Source of the DNA: Thermoplasmata archaeon
GTDB taxonomy: Archaea > Thermoplasmatota > Thermoplasmata > Lutacidiplasmatales > UBA184
Direction: 5' to 3'
Assembly (NCBI GenBank): GCA_030037735.1
Contig: JASHQC010000056.1
Location: 1,707 to 65,706 of the forward strand
Length of the DNA: 64,000 nucleotides
Below, piece by piece: positions 36,941 to 51,367 of the stretch; positions within the stretch are counted from its first letter, which is position 1, and each line of letters opens with the position of its first letter. A program made the position numbers and the translations under genes. The notes below the pieces were generated by a model. The model saw nothing but the letters and a program-made list of their open reading frames with translations, had not been told where the DNA came from and did not search any database.

Positions 36941-38734
36941 TTGACCGCACGTACATCCCCCATCACCCCGTCGCCATTTTCCATGGAAGCGATGTCTCAT
37001 CGACCGGTCCGCGCGACTACTATTCCCGGTTCCGATTCCCCGGCGCCCTTCCCCCGCTTGCGCGGAACGAACCTCCTCGACGCTCCCCTGCTCAACAAGG
37101 GGACCGCTTTCACCCACAACGAGCGCACGGCTCTCGGTCTGCACGGCCTTCTGCCTCCGCAGGTGGAGTCGCTTGAGCAGCAGGTCGTCCGGGCCTACGA
37201 GGCGTTCCGCCGGAAGACCGACGACCTCGAGCGCCACATCTACCTGCGGGCGCTCCAGGACACGAACGAGGTGCTGTTCTACCGACTGCTGCTCGACCAC
37301 ATGGAGGAGATGATGCCGGTGGTCTACACCCCGGTCGTCGCCCTCGGATGCCAAGAATTCTCTCACATCTACCGACGGCCCCGCGGGCTCTTCGTGCCCT
37401 ACCCGCTACGCGACTCGATCCCGACGCTTCTTCGCCACCGGCCGAACCCCGACGTCGACATCATCGTGGTCACCGACGGGGAGCGGATTCTGGGAATCGG
37501 CGACCAAGGAGTCGGGGGACTCGGCATCCCGATCGGGAAGCTGTCGCTCTACACGCTCATCGGCGGGATTCGACCCGAACGGACGCTCCCGATCGTGTTG
37601 GACGTCGGCACGAACAACCCGGACCGGTTGCAGGACCCGGAGTATCTGGGCTGGCGCCACTCGCGCATTACCGGCGCCGAGTATGACGAGTTCATTGACC
37701 ACTTCGTTCGAGCGGTCCGGCACGCGTTGCCGGGCACCGTGTTGCAGTGGGAGGACTTCGGCGCTGAACACGCCCGCCCCATCCTCGAAAGGTACCGGGA
37801 ACGGGTCTTGACGTTCAATGACGACATCCAAGGAACGGGGGCGGTGACACTCGGAGCGATTCTATCGGCGTTGTACGTCACCGGCCAACCGCTCCGGGAA
37901 CAGCGGATCGTGATCTTCGGTGCCGGGTCGGCTGGCCTGGGCGTTGCCGATACGGTCCGGACAGCTATGGTCCAGGACGGGCTCAAGGAACCCGACGCGC
38001 GCCGCCGGTTCTGGCTCATCAACCGGGGTGGGCTGCTGCACTCCAACCGGTCAGACCTCAAGGAGGAGCAACGCCCCTACGCGAGAGCCTGGGAGGAGGT
38101 CGTCCCCTGGGAACGGGCCGACCCGCACCGGGTGAGCCTCAGCGAAACGATTCGCGCGGTCCAACCTACGATTCTCATCGGCCTTTCGACTCTCGCTGGG
38201 GCGTTCGACGAGCCGCTGGTTCGGGAGATGGCCTCCGCGGTCGAGCGACCAGTGATCTTCCCGCTCTCGAACCCCACTGTGAAGTGCGAAGCGGTCCCCG
38301 CTGACCTACTGAAGTGGACAAACGGAAAGGCGGTCATCGCGACCGGGTCGCCGTTCGCCCCGGTCGAGTTCGGAGGACGTTCGGTCCCCATCGCCCAGTG
38401 CAACAATGTGTACATCTTTCCCGCGCTCGGGCTCGGGGCGGTGGCGAGCGGTGCTCGCCGCATCACAGACGGAATGATCCTCACGGCCGCCCGCGCGTTG
38501 GCCGAGCATTCCCCCGCGCGCCATAACCCGGAAGCGCCCCTGCTTCCGCCGATCCCCGCGCTGCGCGCACTGGCGGTGGAGATCGCCCTCGCTGTCGGTC
38601 TCGAGGCACGGCGGACCGGCCACGCCGCTTTCGTGACAGAAGAGGAGATACGGGCGCGCATCGCGGCTACACAATGGACGCCAGCGTACCCCAACTACGA
38701 GGACCTCGTCGGTCCGCCGGAAGGCCAGTCGTAA
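36941..38734 (+). CDS. NAD(P)-dependent malic enzyme
   Basis: N-terminal LNKGTAFT..ER..LGL.GLLPP motif, a malic-enzyme metal/substrate site and a Rossmann GAGSAG. Confidence 0.85.
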   Translation: MTARTSPITPSPFSMEAMSHRPVRATTIPGSDSPAPFPRLRGTNLLDAPLLNKGTAFTHNERTALGLHGLLPPQVESLEQQVVRAYEAFRRKTDDLERHIYLRALQDTNEVLFYRLLLDHMEEMMPVVYTPVVALGCQEFSHIYRRPRGLFVPYPLRDSIPTLLRHRPNPDVDIIVVTDGERILGIGDQGVGGLGIPIGKLSLYTLIGGIRPERTLPIVLDVGTNNPDRLQDPEYLGWRHSRITGAEYDEFIDHFVRAVRHALPGTVLQWEDFGAEHARPILERYRERVLTFNDDIQGTGAVTLGAILSALYVTGQPLREQRIVIFGAGSAGLGVADTVRTAMVQDGLKEPDARRRFWLINRGGLLHSNRSDLKEEQRPYARAWEEVVPWERADPHRVSLSETIRAVQPTILIGLSTLAGAFDEPLVREMASAVERPVIFPLSNPTVKCEAVPADLLKWTNGKAVIATGSPFAPVEFGGRSVPIAQCNNVYIFPALGLGAVASGARRITDGMILTAARALAEHSPARHNPEAPLLPPIPALRALAVEIALAVGLEARRTGHAAFVTEEEIRARIAATQWTPAYPNYEDLVGPPEGQS

Positions 38735-39070: not shown

Positions 39071-39808
39071 TCACGATAACGCGTGGAGTCCGGATAGCGC
39101 TTCGTTCGCGGACTCGACCGAACGACGTGAATACTCTTCGAGGGCGGAGCGTTGCGCGCTGTCGAGCTGAAGGGCGGGCCAGTCCCAATGCAGCGCGACC
39201 GTCGTCCCGACGCCGGCCTCGGGGACCACGCGGGAATCGTACGAGACTTCAACCCATTTCGGCGGTCCGGCTAGGAGCTGTCCGTTTCGCACCGCCCAGG
39301 TGGATCGCTCAACGGTCAGTTTCGCTCCGTCACGCGCGCGAACCGTTCCCCACGCCGGGCGACAAGCCTCCATGTTCCGAAGGGTCGTCTCCACGTGACC
39401 CGTGACGTTGCCGACGCCAACGAAGCTCACGTGGAATGCGTGGTGGAAGAGAGGCCGCGCCGGAAGATGCTCCTCGAGCCGTCGGGCAAGGGACCGGGGA
39501 AGCCCGCGCTGTGCCAGGGCTTCCAGCAGGAGGTGGAAATCGGCGGCGTTCATCGAATCCAGTAGAGAATTTCCTATCCAGTAAGCTTCCACGACCTGGC
39601 GGTCAAACGGGTCGAGCCCGTGCTTGCGACCGATTGCCTCAAGGTAGGGCATGAGCGCCTCGAACCGGCTGAGGTGCTGGCGAGCCTCCGCGCGCCCCTC
39701 TCCCGCCGTGATTGCACGATAGAGGGCCGGCTCAGCGTCCGAGGGTCCGCAGAACTGGAGCCGGTTCGTTGCGATGCTGAAGCGGGCGCAAAGCGCGACG
39801 CCGTCCAT
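39071..39808 (-). CDS. hypothetical protein
   Basis: 245-aa ORF with non-repetitive composition and no overlap; function unknown. Confidence 0.4.
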
Positions 39809-39809
39809 C

Positions 39810-40775
39810 TTATGCGGGCGTCCTCAGGCCCGTCCGCACCCGGCGGGCCACGACCGTCCACGTCTGTCGGAGCAGGGTGAAGCCCACCACGACGACGACC
39901 CCGCCGACAACGGCCGCCGCACCGGCGGCCTGCGTGAGCGTGAACGAACGGCCGGCCACGAGAACCGACAGCACCCAGGTGACCGGGAAGCCCAGCACGA
40001 GCACCGAGGTAGCGACGCCGAGGTCGACCCGTTTCAGTCCCGCGTACCATGTGCCGACAAAGGCGGCGAGCAGTACTGCGCTGATCAGCACCCAGGTCCA
40101 CTGCCCTCCGGTCAGTGCGCCGACAGCGCCGAACTGCATCGTGAGAGCAAGGTACCCGACCAGAAAGCCCGCGCCGATCCCCATCCTACCCAAGGCGACG
40201 ATCCCTGACGGAAGGTCCCGCAACGCGCGCTTGGAGACCGTGTACTCGACTGCCCACAACACCGTCGCGGCCAGGACGTAGTATGTCCCATCGGTCCATA
40301 TCGGGGTGGTCAGGGAGAGAAGGAGGTAGTTCCCTCCCAGGAGAAGACCGGCGGCCACGGCCACCCGGGGATGGAAATGCTCCTTCAGGTACACCACGCC
40401 GAACACGGTGGCCATCAGGAAGAGGGTTCGGTACAGGAAAGAGGCGGTGAGCCCCCCGCCCGCCGCCGTCGCCAGCGCGAGTCCGTGGAAGAACAGCAGG
40501 AAGGGAACGGCGCCTCCGATGAAGCCGATCACCACCAGACGGACCCAATCGACACGACGGAGCGGCTGGGTGAGCGTGCGACGGGCCAACAGCCCGAGCG
40601 GGAGAATCAATCCCGCTACCGCGAGGTTCCGCACGGTGACGAAGGCGTCGGAGCTCGTCCCGTGAACGGCGTAGGCGTTGACGAAGGTGGAGAGGCCACT
40701 GATGACGGCCGTCATCAATACCAGGAGCAACCCCACGGCCCGATACGGGGAGGCGGCGGTCCCGTCAGTCGCCAT
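39810..40775 (-). CDS. EamA/DMT-family transporter
   Basis: 321 aa with about 10 TM and two EamA-like halves. Confidence 0.65.
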
Positions 40776-41091: not shown

Positions 41092-41376
41092 TTAGCGTTC
41101 ATTCGTACTTCCGCTCTCCTCCACGTCGAGGCTCACCAGAACCAGCCCCTGGGCTCGAGGGTCCTCGAAGTCCCGCGATGTGGTCAGGTCGAGGGCGGCG
41201 GATTCGGCGGGCGTGCCGTCCACGATCCGGGGCCACTCCCGACGCAGCTGCTCCTCTGAAACATGGGACAACGCGCCGAGCCAGAGGCGAACACGGACCA
41301 CTCGAGGGGCTGCCTCTCGGGCCGTCACCTCGACGAGCTTGCGCCGGAGGTCCTGCAGCATCGCTTCTTCGTGCAT
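41092..41376 (-). CDS. hypA: HypA-like hydrogenase nickel-insertion protein lacking the C-terminal zinc-finger
   Basis: N-terminal MHEEAMLQDL..VRVRLWLGALSHV resembles the HypA Ni-binding N-domain (MHE..), but there are no cysteines and only 94 aa; hypC starts 30 nt downstream. Confidence 0.45.
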   Translation of the reverse strand: MHEEAMLQDLRRKLVEVTAREAAPRVVRVRLWLGALSHVSEEQLRREWPRIVDGTPAESAALDLTTSRDFEDPRAQGLVLVSLDVEESGSTNER

Positions 41377-41379
41377 CGC

Positions 41380-41895
41380 CTACCGCCGCTCGCGCGAGGT
41401 CGTAGCAGGGGTGGGCCGCCCGAGTTCCTCCGCCAGCGCCTGCGTAACTTCCCGGACGCCTCCGCGTACCTCCGGAGAGAGGTCCGCCCCCGGGTCGAAC
41501 TGGACCGCTTCGATCCCGAACACCACCAGCTGGCCCGGCATTCTTCCGAGGGTTTGACCCAGGGCGACCGCCGAGGCGATCGAGAGCCCATGGGTCGACG
41601 TGCCGGCCAGCGATGACGGAAGAGGTTGGTCGCGCACCAAGACTCGACACCAGGTTCCGGGCGCGCCACCGGATCGTACCGCATCGACGAGGTAGACGCG
41701 GGCCTGTCCTTCCCAGAGATCGAGGAGTTCGGTCGCGCTGCCGGAACAGTCAACGACCCGGGCACGATCGCCGACCAGCGGCCGGAGCTCGCGCGTCACC
41801 TGGAGCCCGGCGGCATCGTCGCCGCGGACCTCGTTCCCGACTCCGATCACCAGGGGGGTGCCGGACCCGCTGCGTTCCGATGGGACCTCGGTCAT
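41380..41895 (-). CDS. hydrogenase maturation endopeptidase (HycI/HoxW/HybD family)
   Basis: [19 protein letters not shown] signature; start ATG at 41893-41895 overlaps the hydA stop (ATGA). Confidence 0.8.
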
Positions 41896-43187
41896 GCGCG
41901 CTCCACCTCCAGCTTCAGGAAATGGGTGGCGCAGGAGATGCACGGGTCATGGTTCCGGATAGCTCGCTCACACAGGGCGGTGAGGTGGGCATCGTCCAGC
42001 GCCAGCGAACGCTCGACGACGTGCCGCACGTCCTCTTCGATGCGCTTCTGGTTCTGCGCCGTCGGCGCGATGATCTCTGCAGCCTCGATCCGGCCGTCGG
42101 AAGCGAGCTGGTACCGGTGGAACAAGAGGCCCCGGGGGGCCTCGGTGGCGGCGGCTCCTACGCCGCCGTGGAACTCGCCGGTCGGTTCGACCCACGCGGT
42201 TTCGGGAGGGCGGTACACGGAGAGGAGGCGCAGCGCCTCTTCGCAGGCGTAGACCATCTCGATGCTCCGCACGAGGATGCTCCGGAACGGGTTCCGGACC
42301 ACCGGTTCCAAGCCCACCTCGCGAGCGATCGACTTCGCCCGGGGAGAGAGCTGCGAGCCATTCAGCGCGTACCGGGCGAGCGCTCCTACGAGGTAGGGAG
42401 TGCCTCCCTTGCGGACCGATTGGAGGGCATGCGTGTAGGCCACCGGCGCCCGCTCAAAGGCCTCGTCGAACCGGCTGGCCGACACCCGAACTCCTCGGCT
42501 CGAGACGATCTCCCCCTCGTTCATCGCATATTCTTCCGGATGCTGAAGCGCGACGAACTCGTAGTCCTCCTCCGCGTCGGGGAAAGGCAGGCCGGCGGCG
42601 AAGTGGACCGTCTCCTCGGCGATTTCGAGCGCGGACTCGAGCGTCGGCCGCAGGCTTTCCAGTTCCTCCCGGCTCGGCACGCGATAGAAACCGCCTACGC
42701 GCACATTGATGGGGTGGATCTCCCGGCCGCCCAGCATCTGCATGACGGCATTGCCGGCTTTCTTGAGGGCAAGGCCTCGTTTCACGGTCTCCGGGTCGTC
42801 CTTGGCCATCCGGACCGCGTCCGGGTATCCCAGGAAATCCGGGGTGTGCAGCAGGTACACGTGCAGCGCATGGCTCTCGATCCACTCGCCACAGTAGAAC
42901 AGCCGACGCAGCTCTCGCAGCGCGCCTCCGACCGAGATGCCGTAGGCCTGCTCCATCGCGTGGACGGCGCTCATCTGGTACGCCACCGGGCAGATGCCGC
43001 AGATCCGTGCCGTAATGTCCGGCGCCTCGGTGTACATCCGACCCCGTAAGAACGCCTCGAAGAACCGGGGCGGCTCGAAGATTCGGAGCTCGACGTGCTC
43101 GACCCGTCCGTCCTCGAGCTTAACGTGGAGCGAGCCCTCGCCTTCTACGCGGGTCAAGTAGTCCACCGCAATCGTGCGCTCGGTCAT
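41892..43187 (-). CDS. hydA: [NiFe]-hydrogenase large subunit, group 3b (sulfhydrogenase alpha)
   Basis: N-terminal [10 protein letters not shown] (RxCGxC) and C-terminal DPCISCATH (DPCxxCxxH) nickel ligands followed by a short cleavable tail. The true start [11 protein letters not shown].. at 43185-43187 overlaps the hydD stop by 4 nt; the listed 669-aa ORF has a spurious extension. Confidence 0.9.
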
Positions 43188-43972
43188 CCGCCGGCTCCCT
43201 CTCCTCCCACCGAATCGCCGGCGGCCCGGAATGCCGGCGCGTCGGCGTTGTAGGTCCGGAACACTCGTCGCACCGCGTCGGGAGCCATGCCAAGGTACCC
43301 CAGGTTCCGGATCAGGGAGGCCGTGTTCGGGGAGTCCATCGGTCCAAAGCAGCCGTAGCATCCGCGGTGGTAGGCCGGGCAAATGGCGCCGCAGCCGGTC
43401 TGGGTTACCGGACCGAGGCAGGGAGTTCCCCGGGCCACCACTACGCAGACGTTCCCGCGGCGCTTGCACTCGACGCAGACGCTCTCCGTGGGCACGTTCG
43501 GTGCCCGACGGGTGAGGAAGGCCGACACGACCTCGAGGAGCTGCGCCTTGTTGATCGGGCAGCCGCGGAGTTCGAAATCGACGGCGACGTGGTCGCGGAT
43601 CGCCGTTGACGCGGCGAGCGTCGCGATGAAGTCCGGCCGCGCGTACACGACGCGCTGGAACTCCTCCACGTTGCCGAAGTTGCGGAGCGCCTGAATCCCC
43701 CCGGCCGTGGCGCAAGCGCCGATCGTGACGAGCGTGCGGGACTGGGCCCGGACCTCCCGGATGCGCGCGGCGTCCTCGGGCGTCGTGATCGAGCCCTCGA
43801 CCAGCGAGAGGTCGTACGGGCCTTCGACGACCGCCGAAGAGGCCTCGCGGAAGTTCGCAATCTCGACCGCGTTGGCGACCGCGAGCAACTCGTCCTCGCA
43901 ATCGAGCATCGTCAGCTGGCAGCCGTCGCAGGAGGCGAACTTCCAGACCGCCAACCGGGGGCGAGGCACCAT
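43184..43972 (-). CDS. hydD: [NiFe]-hydrogenase small subunit (sulfhydrogenase delta)
   Basis: [19 protein letters not shown].. N-terminus plus proximal and distal FeS cysteine clusters ([34 protein letters not shown]). Confidence 0.85.
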
Positions 43973-43977
43973 CGGCT

Positions 43978-44841
43978 TCAGATCTCCCTCGCGGCCAGCC
44001 AGTCGCGCACGACGTCGTACCGGAAGACCGGGCCGTCCCGGCAGACGAACTCGGGACCGAACTGGCAGTGTCCGCAAATGCCCACGGCGCACTTCATATT
44101 GCGCTCCATCGAGATCCAGATGGAGGACCGGGGGATCCCGCGCGCCTCGAGGTCCCGCGCGGCGTACTTCATCATGATCTCCGGGCCGCAGAGGAAGGCG
44201 ATCGTGTTGCCGGGCTCAAATCGCACGTCCGGAATCCGGGCCGTCACGAGCCCAACGTCCCCGTACCAGCTCCGGTCCGCCGCATCGACCGTGACCTGGA
44301 ACCGGAGGTCGGACCGCTGTCGCCACTCCTGAATCTGGTCGTAATAGACCAGGTCCTTCGGCGTCCGCGCCCCGTAGACCACCTCGATGCGTCCGTACTG
44401 CGCGCGATGAGACAGGAAATGGTACAGGACCGGGCGCAAGGGCGGTAGCCCGAGACCCCCTGCCATCAGGACGACGTCTCGGCCCGCGGCAGCGTCGACG
44501 GGCCACCCGCGACCGTAAGGGCCCCGGACTCCCACGGCCTTGCCCGGCGGCAATTGGGCGAGCGCCGCGGTGATCCGTCCCGCATTGCGGACCGTGTGCA
44601 CGACCTGGGTGGAGTCCGTCGGGTCACCGCTCAGCGAGATCGCCGCTTCGCCGACCCCGAACACGTAGAGCATGTTGAATTGCCCCGGGAGGGCCGGAGG
44701 GACCGGCCCGCCATCCATCGGAGCGAGGACAAGGGTGTTCGTGTCCCCGGTTTCCGCCGTCTGGCGCCGCACGAAGTACGGTGCCGGCGCGAGCGGATGG
44801 GACGAGGGCGCGGGCGACGGAGAAGGGACATCAGAGGCCAT
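43978..44841 (-). CDS. hydG: sulfhydrogenase gamma subunit (FAD/NAD(P)-binding oxidoreductase with 2Fe-2S)
   Basis: Ferredoxin-NADP-reductase-like fold and C-terminal [12 protein letters not shown]; start ATG at 44839-44841 (MASDVPSP..). Confidence 0.8.
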
Positions 44842-45313
44842 GGATGTCCAACAACTGGATCTGGGTGTTCTCCAAACGCTGCGCAAGGATTGGCAGGAGC
44901 CGCACGAGGAACCGGTAGCCCTGCTCCGGATGGTTCGCGAGGGTCTGACGGAACTCGGTTCCATCGATTGCGAGCACTTGCGTCGGTTTCAGCGCCCGGG
45001 CGTCGAACCGCCACAGGTACGGAGGGACCAGCCACGACCACCCCAGGACCTCCCCGGGCCCGACGGTCTGAATCGTGAGGTGGGGCTTCTCCGCAGTGGC
45101 AACCTCGAGCGCAACCTTGCCATGAAATACGAGATAGAACCAGTGGGCCGGGTCGCCGTCGCGGACGAGCATCTCGCCCGTGTCGAATCGCCGCTCCTTG
45201 GCGAGCCGGGACGCTTCCCGCGTGAGTTGGGGATCCAGACCGATGAAGAACGGATGATCCGCCACTCGGAGCGGGGCCTCCGGTTCCGGGCGGCCATGCG
45301 GATCGCCGCTCAT
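44831..45313 (-). CDS. standalone cyclic-nucleotide-binding (CAP-family effector) domain protein, no HTH
   Basis: 160 aa from ATG 45311-45313, with the beta-roll cNMP-binding pattern (..FDTGEMLVRDGDPAHWFYLVFHGKVALEV....GPGEVLGW..). It sits between hydB and hydG with stop/start overlap at both ends (TGATG at the 5' end). Confidence 0.65.
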   Translation of the reverse strand: MSGDPHGRPEPEAPLRVADHPFFIGLDPQLTREASRLAKERRFDTGEMLVRDGDPAHWFYLVFHGKVALEVATAEKPHLTIQTVGPGEVLGWSWLVPPYLWRFDARALKPTQVLAIDGTEFRQTLANHPEQGYRFLVRLLPILAQRLENTQIQLLDIHGL

Positions 45314-46479
45314 CAATGTCCGCCTCCCGGCGTGGGAGCCGGTGGAGGCACCCGCAGCGCGGCGACTTCCTCGGTGATGTCGATGGCGACCGGGCACCAC
45401 GTGATGCACCGGCCACAGCCGACGCACCCGGAGGTCCCGAACTGGTCGTGCCAGCTCCCCAGCTTGTGCGTGAGCCACTGGCGGTACCGGGAGGACGAAC
45501 TGGCGCGGACCGGCGTGGCATGGAGCTTCGTGAACTCGAGGTTGAAACAGGAATCCCAGCGTCGCCACCGTTCGGTCTTCTCCGCATCGAGGCTGGGAAC
45601 CTCCTCGGTGGTGTGACAGAAACAGGTGGGACAGGCCATCGTGCAGTTCGTGCAGGAAAGACAGCGCTTGGCCACTCGCTCCCACCGAGGATGGTCCGGA
45701 TTCGAGAGGAGGAGGTCGCGGAGCCCCGTGGGATCCATCGACCGGCCCATCGAGGAGGCGGTGTGGGCCACGATGGCAGTGACCGTCCGGTCCGCCTCGT
45801 CTGTCGGGGGACGCAGCGGAACCGACCTCAAAACCGATCCCCCGGCCTCCGTGCCTACGGCGACGAGGAACTCGTGCCGGCCTTCTGTGAGGATTTCAGT
45901 GAGCGACAGGTCGTAATCGCTTGTGACGCCTGGGCCGGTTCCCATGGAAACGCAGAAACAGGTGCCGCCGGCTTGGCCACATTGGACGGCGACGCGGAGG
46001 ACCCGAGTTCGCCGGGCACTGTAGCTCGGGTCGGGGATTCCTCCCATGAACACCTTGTCCGTGATCTTCAGGGCCGCGAGCTCGCAGGCCCGCACCCCGA
46101 GGAACGCCAGCGGCGTCGGATCCGATGGCTCGGATATCACCGCGAACGTGGGGCCGTCCCGGGTCGCTGTCCAGAGCCGCTCATGCGACGGAAAGAGGTA
46201 CTTCTTCCAGCTGTGCGGCCCGACCACGTAACCGAAGAGCGCCTGGTCGGACCGGCGCTCGAGACGGTACCTGCCGGCGTCCTGGCGTTCGGTCCACCCG
46301 ATCGGCAAGTCGGACTCGGCCTGGATGTCGCCGTAGACGATCGCCCCGTCACGCACCGTCGGCCCGACGATCCGGTAACCCGCCGTACGAATCGAGGTGA
46401 GGAACGCGGAGAAATCTCTCCGGTCGAGAAGGAATCGGTCTCCGGCCGCCGGACTCGCCGCCGTCATCGAGCCCTCCAC
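45313..46479 (-). CDS. hydB: sulfhydrogenase beta subunit (FeS protein)
   Basis: CLSCTNCTMACPTCFC and CVGCGRCITWCP clusters, plus the RWDSCFN and SRYRQW motifs shared with P. furiosus HydB. Confidence 0.8.
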   Translation of the reverse strand: MEGSMTAASPAAGDRFLLDRRDFSAFLTSIRTAGYRIVGPTVRDGAIVYGDIQAESDLPIGWTERQDAGRYRLERRSDQALFGYVVGPHSWKKYLFPSHERLWTATRDGPTFAVISEPSDPTPLAFLGVRACELAALKITDKVFMGGIPDPSYSARRTRVLRVAVQCGQAGGTCFCVSMGTGPGVTSDYDLSLTEILTEGRHEFLVAVGTEAGGSVLRSVPLRPPTDEADRTVTAIVAHTASSMGRSMDPTGLRDLLLSNPDHPRWERVAKRCLSCTNCTMACPTCFCHTTEEVPSLDAEKTERWRRWDSCFNLEFTKLHATPVRASSSSRYRQWLTHKLGSWHDQFGTSGCVGCGRCITWCPVAIDITEEVAALRVPPPAPTPGGGH

Positions 46480-46590: not shown

Positions 46591-47481
46591 TCACGTGCCG
46601 CTCTCAAGACGGAGCAGACGCTGCCAGTCCGCGTTGACCTGCGCCTGCACCCGAGCCAGGTCCTCCGGAACGAGATGCGAGAACCGTCCCTGCGCCTGGA
46701 AATACTCGGTCACCGGTCGAAGCGATCCTCCTTTCCGGGTCACGTGATAGCGGCCCTCCTCGACTTCATAGAGCGGAAAGATGCCGCAGTCCGTCGCTTT
46801 CCTTCCGATCTCGATCGTCTGGTCCGACGGGTACCGCCAGCCGGGTGGGCAGGGGGTGAAGATGTGGAAGAACCGGGGGCCGCGCAGGGCCGCCGCTTTC
46901 TCCACCTTTCGGACGAAATCTTCCGGAAAGCTCGGGTTCACCGTGGCCGCGTAGACCGGCCGGTGCGCGAGGACGATTCCCATGACGTCCTTCTTCGGCT
47001 CCGCCTTCCCGCGCGCCCCGTCCCCGACGGGGGTCGTGGTGGTCCAGGCCCCAAGCGGGGTCGCCCCGCTGCGCTGAACCCCCGTGTTCATGTACGCTTC
47101 GTTGTCGTACATCGCGTAGATCGCGTTGGTGCGACGCTCGAGCATACCGCTCAGGGCCTGGAGGCCGATATCGGCCGTTCCGCCGTCCCCGGCGAATCCG
47201 AGTATATGCACGTCAGTAAGCCCCAAGGCGTCGGCCGCGGCGCGGAGGCCCGAGATCGACGCGCCGGTTGACTCAATCGGGTTGTCCAGCATCGCGACAC
47301 CTAACGCGGTCGTGGGGTAGGGCGTGGCAACGACCGTCCAGCAGCAGGCCGGCACCGACACGATCGTCCGGGGGCCCAGGCCCTTCAGCATGAGCCGCAT
47401 CGCGAGGGCAGGGGCGCACCCCGGACAGGCGGAGTGGCCCGAGTACATCAGCTCCGGGGCCGGAATCGTGAGTTTAACCAT
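46591..47481 (-). CDS. porB: 2-oxoacid:ferredoxin oxidoreductase beta subunit (TPP-binding)
   Basis: Cys ligands near the N-terminus (CPGC, C..C) and the GDG TPP motif (GFAGDGGTADIG). Confidence 0.8.
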   Translation of the reverse strand: MVKLTIPAPELMYSGHSACPGCAPALAMRLMLKGLGPRTIVSVPACCWTVVATPYPTTALGVAMLDNPIESTGASISGLRAAADALGLTDVHILGFAGDGGTADIGLQALSGMLERRTNAIYAMYDNEAYMNTGVQRSGATPLGAWTTTTPVGDGARGKAEPKKDVMGIVLAHRPVYAATVNPSFPEDFVRKVEKAAALRGPRFFHIFTPCPPGWRYPSDQTIEIGRKATDCGIFPLYEVEEGRYHVTRKGGSLRPVTEYFQAQGRFSHLVPEDLARVQAQVNADWQRLLRLESGT

Positions 47482-48658
47482 GGGCCACCTCCTCGGCCGG
47501 GGGCGGAAGGTCCATCCAGCGGGTTTCCGGACCTTTTCCGGCGAGCAACCGACCGAACATCTCGCGAATGTGGTTCGGCGTCACTTCCCTCCCTCCGATT
47601 CCCACTAGGAAACTGGACAACACCGGGTGATGGGAACTGCGGTAGAGGGCGGCCGCCACCTCCGTCGCGGCCGGACCGGCCGCGCCGAACGTGAAGGACC
47701 GGTCCACCACTCCGATGCGATCGGTCCGTCGGGCCAATTCCCGGAACTCCTCTGCCGGGAACGGTCGGAACAACCGCAGCTTAGCGAGTCCGACCTTGTT
47801 TCCCTCGGCGCGCATCTCATCGACAACCGTTCGGGCGGTCGTGGTCATCGTGCCCATTGTGACCAGCACCGCGTCCGCGTCGCCGGTGCGGTAGTGGGAT
47901 ACTGCTCCCCCGTGGGAGCGCCCCGTGAGCGATTGGTAATGCTGCTCGATCCGGTGGAATGCCTCGGGCACCCGTTCCATCGCCTTCGCGACCTCGCGGC
48001 GGAACTCGACGTACTCCTTCGGCCCGGTGAACGATCCGAGTCGGGCGGGCACGCCCGGCACGAGGACCGCCCGGGCGTCGCGAGCCGGCAGGAAGGAGTC
48101 CACCAACGAAGGGTCGGGGACCTCGACCGGCTCGACGGTGTGTGAGAGAAAGAACGCGTCCTCGGTGACCATGACGGGCAGGCGGATCGCCGGATCCTCG
48201 GCGAGACGGTAGGCCTGGAGCACCGTGTCCAGGACCTCCTGGTTGCTCTCCGCATAGAACTGGATCCAACCCGTGTCCCGCTGGGACATGGTGTCCGCGT
48301 GGTCTGCTCCCAGGGACCAGGGCGGAGCGACGGACCGGTTCACGACGCCCATGACGATTGGGGTCCGCATCCCAGCCGCCCAATGCAGGAGCTCGTGCAT
48401 CAGCAGCAGTCCCTGGCTCGACGTGGCGGTGTACGTGCGCGCCCCGAGCGCCGAGGCGCTGATGCAGACCTGCAGGGCGCTGTGCTCAGACTCCACCTTA
48501 ACGAACTGAGCGGGGAGCGTGCCGGCGGCGACGAAGTCCGCCAACTCCTCGACGATCGATGTTTGGGGGGTGATCGGATAAGCAGCGATTACTTGGACGC
48601 GGGCCCGGCACGCCGCGTAGGCCTGAGCGGAATTCCCGGACATCACCATCAGCGTCAT
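47474..48658 (-). CDS. porA: 2-oxoacid:ferredoxin oxidoreductase alpha subunit
   Basis: 394 aa with typical PorA/KorA sequence; start overlaps the porB start region. Confidence 0.8.
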   Translation of the reverse strand: MTLMVMSGNSAQAYAACRARVQVIAAYPITPQTSIVEELADFVAAGTLPAQFVKVESEHSALQVCISASALGARTYTATSSQGLLLMHELLHWAAGMRTPIVMGVVNRSVAPPWSLGADHADTMSQRDTGWIQFYAESNQEVLDTVLQAYRLAEDPAIRLPVMVTEDAFFLSHTVEPVEVPDPSLVDSFLPARDARAVLVPGVPARLGSFTGPKEYVEFRREVAKAMERVPEAFHRIEQHYQSLTGRSHGGAVSHYRTGDADAVLVTMGTMTTTARTVVDEMRAEGNKVGLAKLRLFRPFPAEEFRELARRTDRIGVVDRSFTFGAAGPAATEVAAALYRSSHHPVLSSFLVGIGGREVTPNHIREMFGRLLAGKGPETRWMDLPPPAEEVAHG

Positions 48659-48667
48659 CCAACCCTC

Positions 48668-49531
48668 CTATACCTCCTCCACCATCTCGATCACGCGCGG
48701 CGGGCACTCGACCACGCAGATTCCGCACCCCTTGCAGTACTCGTACCGGACCACGGGGTAGCCCTTCTCGTCGAACTGGAACGCGTCGTCCGGGCAGAAC
48801 TTCCAGCAGAAGTTGCACCGCGTGCAGTGCTCAAGATGGACGACCGGCCGCAGGGTCCGCCAAGCCGCAGTGTGGATGAGCTCGCTCGACAGGGTGGCCA
48901 TCGGTCCCTCGGGCAACTGCGGGGTGGGGCCCACGGCCCGAGGGACCGGTGGGGTGAAGGGCATGTTTGCCTCCACCATTCGTACAGCGTGATATCCGTC
49001 TTCGGCAGCGGCTCGGTTTTCCGCCTGCCGAGCCGGCACGAACTCCTCGATGGCTTGGTCGAGGGCGGTCATCGACACGACCCCCGAGGCAGCCACCAGC
49101 GCCCCCAAGACCGCAGTGTTCACGATCGGCATCGTCAAACTGCCCAGTCCATGGGCGACGGCGATCTGGTTGGCGTCGACCACCGCACGACGGGCCGGCA
49201 CCGGGATCATCAGCTCCTGAGCCGGGTTCCGAGTATTGACCAGCAGGAGTCCGTCCTCCTTGAGTCCGTCGGTGACCGGCTGCGTCCGGAGAAGGCTCGG
49301 CTCCAGCACGACGACGATGTCGGGGGTCGTGATCGACGTGCGGATGCCGAGCGGGTGGTCGTCGATCCGGGTGTACGCGGTGACCGGGGCCCCGCGTCGC
49401 TCGACGCCGAAGAAGGGGAAGCTTTGGGGCCTCTTGCCATCCAAGAACGCCGCCTGAGCGAGTAGCTCGGAAGCGACGACGGCGCCCTGGCCGCCACGCC
49501 CATGGAAGCGAATCTCTATCGTGGCCCCCAC
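48668..49531 (-). CDS. porGD: 2-oxoacid:ferredoxin oxidoreductase fused gamma-delta subunit (delta = 2x[4Fe-4S] ferredoxin)
   Basis: N-terminal gamma (GRGGQGAV..) fused to C-terminal [24 protein letters not shown]. Confidence 0.75.
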
Positions 49532-49723: not shown

Positions 49724-51367
49724 TCACTCGTTCTCGTCGCGCGAAGGCGATGGCACGTTCTTAACCGCGACGCGGCGGAATAGAGTGCGCTCGAGGATCT
49801 GAACCATGCCGGCGAGCGCGAGCGCCATGACCGCCGTCGCGAGGCCGAACGCCTGCTCATTTCCGGCGCCTACGTACGAGCGCTGATCGAGGATGAATCC
49901 CAGCGGGACGAGCAGCCCGGCCAAAGTCATCACGACCAGCGCCGAGGAACCATCCCAGAAATCGCTCGAAGACAGGGCCGGCCGGGCCGACGCAACGGGT
50001 GGGAGCGTCTTGGGTGCTGCGGCGGGCGAAGTGGGCATTTGTCCCGCGACTGGGGCCACCGCTAAGCGCGCCCGATATGTGCGCCGGTAGCGGAGATATA
50101 GGAACCCGATGACCAGACCTTCCACCACGGCGAGCGTCCCGAGATAGGACACGTACATCGAGAGGGGGATCGTCACTCCCGGCATGACCCCGCCCCAGAT
50201 GGTCATCAGGCCGAAGAACGAGAGAAGGTAGGTCGCCGTGAAGAGAACCACCGGCCGGTCGCGAGGATGGGTTCGGGGGTTCTTCAACCGGCGACTGGCG
50301 CGGCCGACCACGGTCTCGATCCAGGGGATGAACAGGATGAACACCGCGAGCAGGCCGACCAGGAGCACCGCGACGGTCGGCGTGACGTACTGGAAGTCGG
50401 CGACCTTGTAGAGCCAGAGGAAGTACCAGTCCGGCTCAGGTGATGCCCCTCCCTGGCCGGGGGCGCCGAACGCTGGCGGAAGCTTGACTAGGAACGCCGA
50501 CGCGATGAGCAGGAGGCAGCCAACGTAGACGAACCCCCACTTGAGCATGTAGAGGAAGACCCTGGGAAACCAGCTGCCGAGCTTCCGGTCATCGGAGGCG
50601 GTCAGCACCCGTTTCGCTTGAGGGTCGCTGCTCGCCCGGGGCCCGATCCCATGGGATTCGAACAAGGTCACGTGAACGTACAAGAGGGTCAGGAGTGCGA
50701 CCGGGATGAGCACGACGTGCAGGGCGAACATCCGCGAGAGAAGTCCCTGGAACGTCCCGTTACCTTGGATGAGCGGGTACGAGATCGGGCCGATGACCGG
50801 GACGGAGTGGACCAGCGCAAGCCCCACGTCCGTAGCGCCGACCGACAGTGCGGTGTAGGGAAGGAGATAGCCCGTGAATCCCATCCCGAGCATCAGGAAC
50901 AGTAGAATCGTCCCCAGCATCCACGAAACCTCCCGGGGCCGTTTGTACACCCCGGTGTAGAATCCACGGAAGAAGTGGACAAACGCGAGCATGATCACCG
51001 CATACGCGCCGTACAGGTGGCTGGAGAGCAGCAACCAGCCGAACGGGGCCGTTTGGATGATGTACAGTGTCGACGTCCACGCCTGGGGCAAGCCGCCCGT
51101 CGTGATGGACGCGGTCGACGGGTCGTAGTAGAACAGGAGGAGCAGTCCGGTGAGAACCTGGAGCATGAACCCGACCGCGACGAAGGCGCCGGTCCAATAC
51201 GACGGGTTGAAACTGAATTCCGGCTGGGGACGATACGGCCACTTGGAAATGTGGGTTCGGCTCTCGAGGAAGTTCCAGAGGGAATTCAAGGAGCGATTGT
51301 AGAGCGACGAAACCGGGCCCAGCGTCGGCGGCACCGGGTGAATCGTCCCCCCTTCGGTTTGCGCCAT
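49724..51367 (-). CDS. cytochrome b (bc-complex cytochrome b/b6-like, N- and C-terminal domains fused)
   Basis: 547 aa, multi-TM, with conserved heme-ligand His pairs (..HLYGAYAVIMLAFVHFFRG.., ..ALHVVLIPV..). Confidence 0.8.
   Translation of the reverse strand: MAQTEGGTIHPVPPTLGPVSSLYNRSLNSLWNFLESRTHISKWPYRPQPEFSFNPSYWTGAFVAVGFMLQVLTGLLLLFYYDPSTASITTGGLPQAWTSTLYIIQTAPFGWLLLSSHLYGAYAVIMLAFVHFFRGFYTGVYKRPREVSWMLGTILLFLMLGMGFTGYLLPYTALSVGATDVGLALVHSVPVIGPISYPLIQGNGTFQGLLSRMFALHVVLIPVALLTLLYVHVTLFESHGIGPRASSDPQAKRVLTASDDRKLGSWFPRVFLYMLKWGFVYVGCLLLIASAFLVKLPPAFGAPGQGGASPEPDWYFLWLYKVADFQYVTPTVAVLLVGLLAVFILFIPWIETVVGRASRRLKNPRTHPRDRPVVLFTATYLLSFFGLMTIWGGVMPGVTIPLSMYVSYLGTLAVVEGLVIGFLYLRYRRTYRARLAVAPVAGQMPTSPAAAPKTLPPVASARPALSSSDFWDGSSALVVMTLAGLLVPLGFILDQRSYVGAGNEQAFGLATAVMALALAGMVQILERTLFRRVAVKNVPSPSRDENE

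Follow-up and report, generated by a model that had tools for sequence, protein, structure and literature searches.

Few hydrogenases are more widespread in soil and sediment microbes than the group-3b [NiFe]-hydrogenases, for which a role in venting or recovering reducing power under hypoxia has been proposed. The solved group-3b enzymes in the Protein Data Bank (PDB) are of the Pyrococcus/Thermococcus type only (9nez/9nf0). Their representative, sulfhydrogenase I (SHI) of Pyrococcus furiosus, consists of four subunits encoded by four genes (hydBGDA), with no gene for a cyclic nucleotide-binding domain (CNBD) protein among them. In this work, we analyze a 64,000-nucleotide stretch of contig JASHQC010000056.1 from a Thermoplasmata archaeon, referred to below as the window, in which homologous alpha, beta, gamma, and delta subunits are encoded together with a standalone CNBD protein of 160 amino acids (aa). 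The gene for this protein is located between hydB and hydG. A preliminary description of the window regarded this arrangement as undescribed and proposed that the protein senses cAMP or another cyclic nucleotide (cNMP).

The arrangement is in fact already known for bacteria, in that the gene has been listed there, and the Thermoplasmata copy is another member. In Frankia casuarinae, the CNBD gene Francci3_4499 of the group-3b cluster is called a ‘small transcriptional regulator’ (PMC11879354, 2024). The Rhodococcus equi 103S cluster is reported to encode a 4Fe-4S protein, a CNBD protein, a protein that binds FAD/NAD(P), an oxidoreductase, and a catalytic subunit (PMC13332983, 2026). Likewise, the group-3b cluster of an alphaproteobacterial methanotroph is said to encode a CNBD protein named ‘HoxI’, with citation of Burgdorf et al. 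2005 (PMC12319191, 2025). The CNBD genes of Frankia, R. equi (WP_013415449), and the Burkholderia savannae plasmid pMSMB0266 (WP_059583937) share position, size, and overlapping frames with the window gene, and the gene order is also the same: 4Fe-4S subunit, CNBD, FAD/NAD(P) subunit, small subunit, large subunit, protease. The Burkholderia protein, the only bacterial sequence compared directly, is 43% identical to the window protein over 143 aa and has the same SWLxPPYxWxFDARA motif; the Frankia and R. equi cases were compared through the text of the papers (PMC11879354, PMC13332983). Unlike these literature cases, the host of the window operon is an archaeon.

A second related system is found in group 3d. 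According to PMC3702609, HoxI of Cupriavidus necator is a CNBD homodimer located on the diaphorase module of the soluble hydrogenase and acts as its NADPH activation site; some of its properties are also drawn from PMC3189943. The recognition of HoxI as a CNBD subunit of the soluble [NiFe]-hydrogenase is credited to Burgdorf et al. 2005 in PMC12319191. HoxI (C. necator/Ralstonia eutropha H16, pHG1, WP_011154015) resembles the window protein in being small, standalone, and encoded in the operon of a cytosolic NAD(P)-linked [NiFe]-hydrogenase. However, hoxI follows the hoxW protease gene on pHG1, whereas the window gene sits between two subunit genes, and the partner of HoxI is the HoxFU flavoprotein rather than an AsrAB-like HydB/HydG pair.

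Two features are new here: the non-canonical Trp-rich cassette of the CNBD protein, and a HydB-CNBD fusion that is accompanied by a second, free copy. With moderate confidence, we favor the view that the CNBD protein serves the hydrogenase as a fifth, accessory component, conserved and physically linked to its diaphorase module, and that it is not a canonical cNMP sensor.

The CNBD gene in group-3b operons

Based on reading of open reading frames (ORFs) and on Pfam and NCBIfam matches, the window (65% G+C) contains an intact hydrogenase cluster in the order hydB-CNBD gene-hydG-hydD-hydA-hycI-hypA-hypC. All operon genes are on the minus strand. The features referred to in this text are as follows:

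45313..46479, minus strand: hydB/hyhB, 4Fe-4S beta subunit of a group-3b [NiFe]-hydrogenase, 388 aa from a GTG start
44831..45313, minus strand: CNBD gene, 160 aa, CRP/FNR-type sensor domain without helix-turn-helix (HTH), PF00027
44993..45061, minus strand: Trp-rich cassette replacement in the CNBD gene, residues 85-107, GPGEVLGWSWLVPPYLWRFDARA, defined by column counts over orthologues
43978..44841, minus strand: hydG/hyhG, FAD/NAD(P)-binding [2Fe-2S] gamma subunit, 287 aa, NAD_binding_1 and DHODB_Fe-S_bind
43184..43972, minus strand: hydD/hyhS, small subunit, 262 aa, Oxidored_q6 (E=1.8e-21)
41892..43187, minus strand: hydA/hyhL, [NiFe] large subunit, 431 aa, NiFeSe_Hases and NCBIfam ShyA (E=1.5e-92)
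41380..41943, minus strand: hycI-type maturation protease, PF01750, likely ATG at 41895 overlapping the hydA stop
41092..41376, minus strand: hypA, PF01155
40777..41061, minus strand: hypC, PF01455, last gene of the cluster
60461..61945, minus strand: class III cyclase, PF00211 (E=5e-21)

The CNBD gene has the structure given in the preliminary description, namely a 160-aa reading frame without an HTH that overlaps both of its neighbors. Its product aligns with all 89 positions of the PF00027 profile (1-89) and scores 53.2 bits against a gathering cutoff of 27.5 (E=3e-14). No other Pfam domain, HTH included, was matched in the 160-aa protein, which stops at the C-helix. The ATG at 45313 shares its A with the hydB stop codon (TGATG) and is preceded by GGAGG 9 nt upstream, while the stop of the gene is at 44831. 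An alternative in-frame TTG start at 45316, one codon upstream, would create a 4-nt TTGA overlap, the counterpart of the ATGA found in most relatives. At the other end, the 3′ end of the gene overlaps the start of hydG (ATG at 44841) by 11 nt. This geometry is kept across relatives and fits the translational coupling with the structural genes that had been proposed. Compared with its closest relatives, the gene has a ratio of nonsynonymous to synonymous substitution rates (dN/dS) of 0.10-0.19, as expected under purifying selection. No second CNBD copy was found within the window.

A protein search with the CNBD sequence returned 916 homologues at E<=1e-3. The top 120 are all standalone proteins of 135-160 aa, and those with a named organism are from Thermoplasmata. 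For the proteins of the window, the nearest relatives are without exception from metagenome-assembled genomes of Thermoplasmata. Two Thermoplasmata loci with CNBD proteins 84% and 57% identical to the window copy (L001 and L003) have the same eight-gene order, including the hypA-hypC end, and the same overlaps. To survey the arrangement more broadly, the family alignment was scanned against one genome per species, and the resulting 80 loci were checked by tblastn with the five proteins of the window. The order hydB-CNBD-hydG-hydD-hydA(-hycI) was found on one strand in 69 of these 80 loci. In relatives, hycI is placed as in the window. The 69 loci include Thermoplasmata, Chthonomonadales, Omnitrophota, Gaiellaceae, Acidimicrobiia, other Actinomycetota, Roseiarcus, Meiothermus, and Fibrobacteria; altogether, the five-gene order spans Thermoplasmata and about ten bacterial phyla. 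It is also present on plasmids of Burkholderia savannae, B. thailandensis, Paraburkholderia, and Pandoraea, where RefSeq already annotates the genes consecutively. When loci were selected through HydB homologues and the CNBD was ignored, the CNBD gene was still located between hydB and hydG in all three (KSB1, Fraserbacteria, Bipolaricaulia).

The details of the arrangement are conserved as well. The CNBD gene overlaps hydB by 4 nt in 56 of 74 loci and hydG by 11 nt in 46 of 76 loci, most of the others having hydG overlaps of 4-20 nt. Across 54 loci, CNBD identity to the window copy is correlated with the corresponding identity of HydA (Pearson 0.93) and of HydB (0.92). Because of this synteny, overlap geometry, purifying selection, and co-divergence with HydA and HydB, the sequences argue that the CNBD gene is a stable, co-inherited part of the operon in a very large group-3b clade, whose distribution far exceeds that of the four-gene Thermococcales type. 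Bacterial members alone, used as a profile, matched no fewer than 6,223 protein clusters (E<=1e-10), not all of them hydrogenase-linked.

The remaining subunits place the enzyme in group 3b. All four structural subunits (beta, gamma, delta, alpha) were identified by Pfam and NCBIfam, and the best solved relatives are the alpha and beta subunits of SHI. HydB matches Fer4_22 (E=2e-31) and has NCBIfam sulfhyd_HydB (HydB/ShyB) as its best model (E=1.6e-37), and its match in the PDB is 9nez_B, the beta subunit of sulfhydrogenase 1 (E=4e-34). HydA matches 9nez_D, the alpha subunit (E=8e-71), and its translation contains N- and C-terminal CxxC nickel-ligand motifs, the latter as DPCISCATH. The best NCBIfam models for HydG are hydrogenase gamma and AsrB-like. 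The hydD product is 64-92% identical across related loci, and its stop codon lies in a 4-nt overlap with the start of hydA. With ShyA/HydA and HydB as the best NCBIfam models, the operon is of the group-3b hydB/G/D/A type and not of the hoxFUYHW(I) type. Given the degree of HydA similarity to SHI and the lack of a CNBD gene there, the window enzyme represents a distinct branch of group 3b. The order hydBGDA can be called canonical, as was done in the preliminary description, for Thermococcales, but not for the clade of the window operon.

Fold and cassette of the CNBD protein

An AlphaFold2 model of the CNBD protein, based on a 51-sequence alignment, has a mean predicted local distance difference test score (pLDDT) of 82.6. 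It comprises a beta-barrel with strands in residues 38-117, followed by a 28-residue helix (129-156), and thus fits the CNBD fold, an eight-stranded barrel with a helix at its C terminus. The sole poorly modelled stretch is residues 91-100 in the cassette region (pLDDT ~55). Foldseek matched the model with probability 1.00 to GlxR, CRP, MloK1, and PKG domains; the best matches were the sensor domains of GlxR and CRP and PDB entry 3mdp, and the model was also grouped with DNR, FNR, and CprK. On the basis of this model, the protein is predicted to correspond to a CRP/FNR regulator's sensor half: it has the barrel and the long helix but no DNA-binding domain. The sensor fold and C-helix are held in common with CRP/FNR transcription factors (E. 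coli CRP, M. tuberculosis CRP, GlxR, FNR, CooA, DNR, CprK); in contrast to these, the CNBD protein has no HTH, and the Glu and Arg that contact cAMP are not conserved. In CRP/FNR proteins, the long C-terminal helix forms the dimer interface, and the family accepts many ligands other than cAMP. Among solved structures, the best sequence match to the family profile (E=3.5e-18) is 3mdp, the structural genomics entry for Gmet_1532 of Geobacter metallireducens. This protein is likewise standalone and has the ...P-Y-x-[YW]...ARA spacing in the cassette region, but the Trp residues are missing (GVSSLIKPYHY).

The phosphate-binding cassette of canonical CNBDs has the form G-E-x-x-x...R-[ST]-A, in which the Glu contacts the ribose 2′-OH and the Arg clamps the cyclic phosphate. 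We compared this region across 68 hydrogenase-linked orthologues from both domains of life. The family signature is GPGE[VI]xGWSWLxPP[YH]RWxFDARA, and the window protein (GPGEVLGWSWLVPPYLWRFDARA) fits it. The most conserved columns are W92 (63/68), S93 (65/68), W94 (65/68), P98 (65/68), H/Y99 (59/68), W101 (66/68), D104 (59/68), and R106 (66/68), whereas R102 is Arg in only 42 of the 68, with mainly His, Thr, Gln, Met, or Pro in the others. The correspondence with the canonical residues depends on the register. HMMER alignment to PKG sets the family G91-W92 against the canonical G-E, and an ungapped HMMER alignment to 2pqq sets W101-R102-F103 against the canonical R-T-A; in MAFFT alignment with E. 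coli CRP, whose loop is one residue longer, R102 is set against R82.

The protein thus lacks a canonical cassette. The Glu is replaced by Trp92, and the Arg by Trp101 in the register of PKA, PKG, and M. tuberculosis CRP; in the E. coli CRP register the Arg position is R102, so that a phosphate-clamping Arg is conserved in neither. At the level of sequence, the cassette is rebuilt as a strongly conserved Trp/Pro-rich motif. With the ribose-binding Glu gone and no conserved phosphate-binding Arg, canonical cAMP binding and sensing by this protein appear unlikely. As a result, the annotation ‘cyclic nucleotide-binding domain’ should not be taken as evidence of cAMP signalling.

Probable association with HydB and possible roles

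A profile search of 1.84 billion representative proteins revealed natural fusions of the two neighboring gene products. Protein P0274 (542 aa) consists of a full HydB (Fer4_22) followed by a CNBD. The fusion family comprises twelve 90%-identity clusters of 539-546 aa with identities of 49-100%, in addition to a 720-aa form on a degraded contig. Clusters that span identities down to 49% indicate a maintained lineage and not an assembly error. On three contigs, one of them 148 kb long, a second, free CNBD gene lies after the fusion gene, with hydG-hydD-hydA-hycI-hypF-hypC-hypD behind it (L091:2924-5110, L092:1739-3925, and L094:7001-9184). The free CNBD has 133-153 aa and is 48% identical to the fused copy. 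That one CNBD is fused to HydB while another is kept free argues that the protein contacts HydB and that each enzyme has two CNBD copies, and the fusion lineage thereby suggests a dimeric accessory subunit docked on HydB. No CNBD-HydG or HydB-CNBD fusion was found within the 76 syntenic loci. Two high-scoring tandem CNBD-CNBD proteins (P0242, P0244) were dropped as evidence, as no hydrogenase adjoins them.

Considering the synteny across two domains of life, the co-divergence with HydA, and the natural HydB-CNBD fusion, the CNBD protein is very probably tied physically to the enzyme. We propose that it would be made in step with HydB and HydG through the overlapping reading frames and that it would probably dock, as a dimer, on the electron-input (diaphorase-like) module formed by HydB and HydG, HydB being the most probable site. 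It may bind a small ligand other than a canonically bound cyclic nucleotide and could in this way tune or reactivate the passage of electrons from NADPH to H2 or back. NAD(P)H or another nucleotide that reports redox state is our best guess at the ligand, purely on the analogy of HoxI. Since the contexts described below for loci without the in-operon arrangement are all related to redox or pyridine-nucleotide metabolism, they are weakly consistent with a redox nucleotide; even if the protein is an accessory component, NAD(P)H as the specific ligand is a tentative and rather unlikely identification. Presence in the mature enzyme, the dimeric state, the ligand, and the regulatory effect are features that we infer.

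A broader proposal is possible, if on the whole doubtful. The Trp-cassette CNBD would be a class of non-cNMP sensor that forms a dimeric, integral fifth subunit of most group-3b hydrogenases outside Thermococcales. A redox ligand such as NADPH would prompt it to gate NADPH/H2 electron flow or, once the enzyme has met O2, reductive reactivation, and it would have been missed in biochemical preparations as it dissociates easily, like HoxI. HoxI is lost at 150 mM KCl, pH 8, and loose binding of the same kind would explain how preparations of the enzyme could miss a fifth subunit.

Several points weigh against an accessory component of this kind. The Trp-rich cassette is also found in paralogues away from hydrogenases, so the motif marks a broader subfamily or ligand class and not a hydrogenase-specific interface. 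An AlphaFold2 model of the natural fusion, obtained with a mixed alignment, has good domain confidence and a predicted template modelling score of 0.67, with a disordered linker, and speaks neither for nor against a fixed docking pose. The analogy with HoxI is imperfect: identity to the window protein is 26% over 104 residues, the two are not orthologous, and HoxI keeps the Gly-Glu of the cassette with His at the Arg position, where the window protein has the Trp-rich motif. With low identity and a different cassette, HoxI is an analogue or distant paralogue, and the NADPH analogy is functional and not based on homology. The SHI structures (9nez/9nf0) come from a lineage without the CNBD gene and therefore have no bearing either way, and the literature search found no group-3b structure with a CNBD chain. 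In addition, Hyd3 of Mycobacterium smegmatis is listed as beta, gamma, delta, alpha, and protease without a number for an extra gene, beta and gamma being numbered consecutively in this old annotation (PMC2799521), and is described as having four subunits (PMC13332983).

Other roles of the protein have to be weighed against that of an accessory component. It is quite improbable that the protein is a genuine cAMP or cGMP receptor that gates the hydrogenase allosterically and is fed by the class III cyclase of the genome. Such a receptor would fit the full-length PF00027 match, the closeness of the fold to cAMP-bound GlxR/CRP, the cyclase domain at 60461-61945, and the possibility that, aligned in the E. 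coli CRP register, Arg102 stands where the phosphate is bound. However, the cassette residues on which cNMP sensing would depend are largely lost, a loss that the preliminary description itself had named as refuting its proposal: the ribose-contacting Glu is Trp in 63 of 68 orthologues and the Arg position is Trp101 in 66 of 68, while the alternative Arg102 is present in just 42. In PMC3702609, moreover, HoxI is credited with an NADPH activation site and not with cNMP binding. The cyclase gene named in the preliminary description is real, but it is unlinked and 15 kb away, and nothing was found that connects it to the operon. The operon is self-contained and mobile, occurring on Burkholderia plasmids and in about ten phyla in unrelated surroundings, and for this reason the cyclase carries no weight as evidence for a cAMP link. 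The annotations ‘small transcriptional regulator’ (PMC11879354) and, by JGI, ‘CRP/FNR family transcriptional regulator’ point instead to a small transcription-linked regulator that controls hydrogenase expression through a partner protein, as does the adjacency of Thermoplasmata paralogues to a response-regulator gene. We regard this as highly improbable, given that the protein lacks an HTH or other DNA-binding domain and ends in the dimerisation helix, that its gene keeps the same position in Archaea and Bacteria despite their different transcription machineries, and that it is fused to an Fe-S subunit.

The location of the gene exactly between the two diaphorase-module genes, tightly coupled to both, would also be expected of a dedicated assembly or cofactor-insertion factor for HydB/HydG. 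Such a factor could load FAD or Fe-S clusters, or hold the diaphorase module until HydDA joins, and would be absent from the mature enzyme, in agreement with the description of group-3b enzymes as four-subunit (PMC13332983). This role is unlikely. The known maturation genes (hycI, hypA, hypC, hypF, hypD) are grouped downstream and not among the structural genes; a stable HydB fusion kept down to 49% identity is hard to square with a transient chaperone; and Thermococcales assemble HydB/HydG without a CNBD protein. A recent neutral insertion or spurious ORF has negligible probability. Apart from the many long chance ORFs that the high G+C of the window yields, nothing is in its favor, and it is refuted by conservation in two domains of life, by the conserved motif and overlaps, and by a dN/dS far under 1.

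Taken by itself, the window gene is an unremarkable example of an arrangement already annotated in many genomes and mentioned in three papers. The Trp-rich cassette and the HydB fusion provide concrete, testable handles on the function of group-3b CNBD proteins. If most group-3b enzymes carry a ligand-sensing fifth subunit, the four-subunit model derived from Pyrococcus would fail to describe their regulation, and could mislead activity assays, purification protocols, and uses in NADPH regeneration. Likewise, if the subunit is integral, the textbook four-subunit account of group 3b would fall short for those soil bacteria and archaea where the class is most abundant.

Family members in other contexts and neighboring genes

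The arrangement within the operon is missing in 11 of the 80 loci. In one metagenome-assembled genome each of Verrucomicrobiota (L069:1160-6426) and Polyangiales (L084:1163-6468), the CNBD gene is divergent from a gene for Rex, a redox-sensing repressor, that heads a more distant hydB-hydG-hydD-hydA cluster in which hydB and hydG are not separated by a CNBD gene. In an Acidobacteriaceae locus (L080:1725-7154), two consecutive CNBD genes follow a row of NuoH, NuoI, NuoK-like, antiporter-like, and NuoB-like genes. This row is complex-I-like or group-4-hydrogenase-like, with no large subunit seen in the stretch examined; hyd genes are likewise missing at a second Acidobacteriaceae locus (L081). 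At one Verrucomicrobiota locus, the CNBD gene is located between genes for glutathione peroxidase and a pyridine-nucleotide-disulfide oxidoreductase.

Thermoplasmata also encode a CNBD paralogue that is 45-54% identical and has the same Trp-rich motif (L026:2831-6021, L059:4748-7948, L035, L065, L077). In the three Pfam-annotated loci, its gene follows that for a DUF981 membrane protein, and in two of these three it precedes that for a response-regulator-receiver protein of ~480 aa. At L035 and L065, ORFs match the DUF981 and response-regulator proteins in size, the match being one of size alone. In one metagenome-assembled genome, the paralogue (L077) and a hydrogenase-linked copy (L034) are 26 kb apart on the same contig.

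Streptomyces plasmid proteins with 32-34% identity were set aside as paralogues, being encoded near nar, universal-stress, and glucose-6-phosphate dehydrogenase genes and not near hydrogenases. At L008:5968-7106 and L009:4689-6375, CNBD genes with the GWSW motif are located by genes for CBS-domain and PNPOx-family proteins, narGHJI, universal-stress proteins, and glucose-6-phosphate dehydrogenase. This gene set recalls actinobacterial hypoxia/dormancy regulons. On the Pandoraea vervacti plasmid pPV15 (L010:5980-9338), the CNBD motif is degraded (GEIVFAGEPMSPCSW), the large-subunit position has no annotated coding sequence, and tblastn covers part of HydA only. The hydrogenase operon of this plasmid may be decaying.

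The cyclase of the window has ~230 N-terminal residues without a domain match and a weak PDZ-like match below the Pfam cutoff, preceded by a Cys-rich stretch (CRCVCPSCSLGICLC). Catalytic-type motifs (FTD, KTIGD, VNIASR) can be recognized by eye. No tRNA genes were found across the whole 64-kb window.

Directly after hypC, the window encodes an EamA-family transporter and a DUF6390 protein (39071-40775, minus strand). The same pair follows hypC in the Thermoplasmata relatives L001 and L003-L005 (84% and 57% CNBD identity), and as a result of this repetition it may be part of a conserved neighborhood. On the other side, three 2-oxoacid:ferredoxin oxidoreductase genes (fused gamma/delta, alpha, beta) are located 111 nt upstream of hydB (46591-49531, minus strand). 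This trio is likewise upstream of hydB on the same strand in L001 and is divergent in a Fraserbacteria locus (L097), but is not found in this position in L003. Further out, the cluster is flanked by genes for a 547-aa cytochrome b/b6-type protein and malic enzyme (49724-51367 and 36941-38734).

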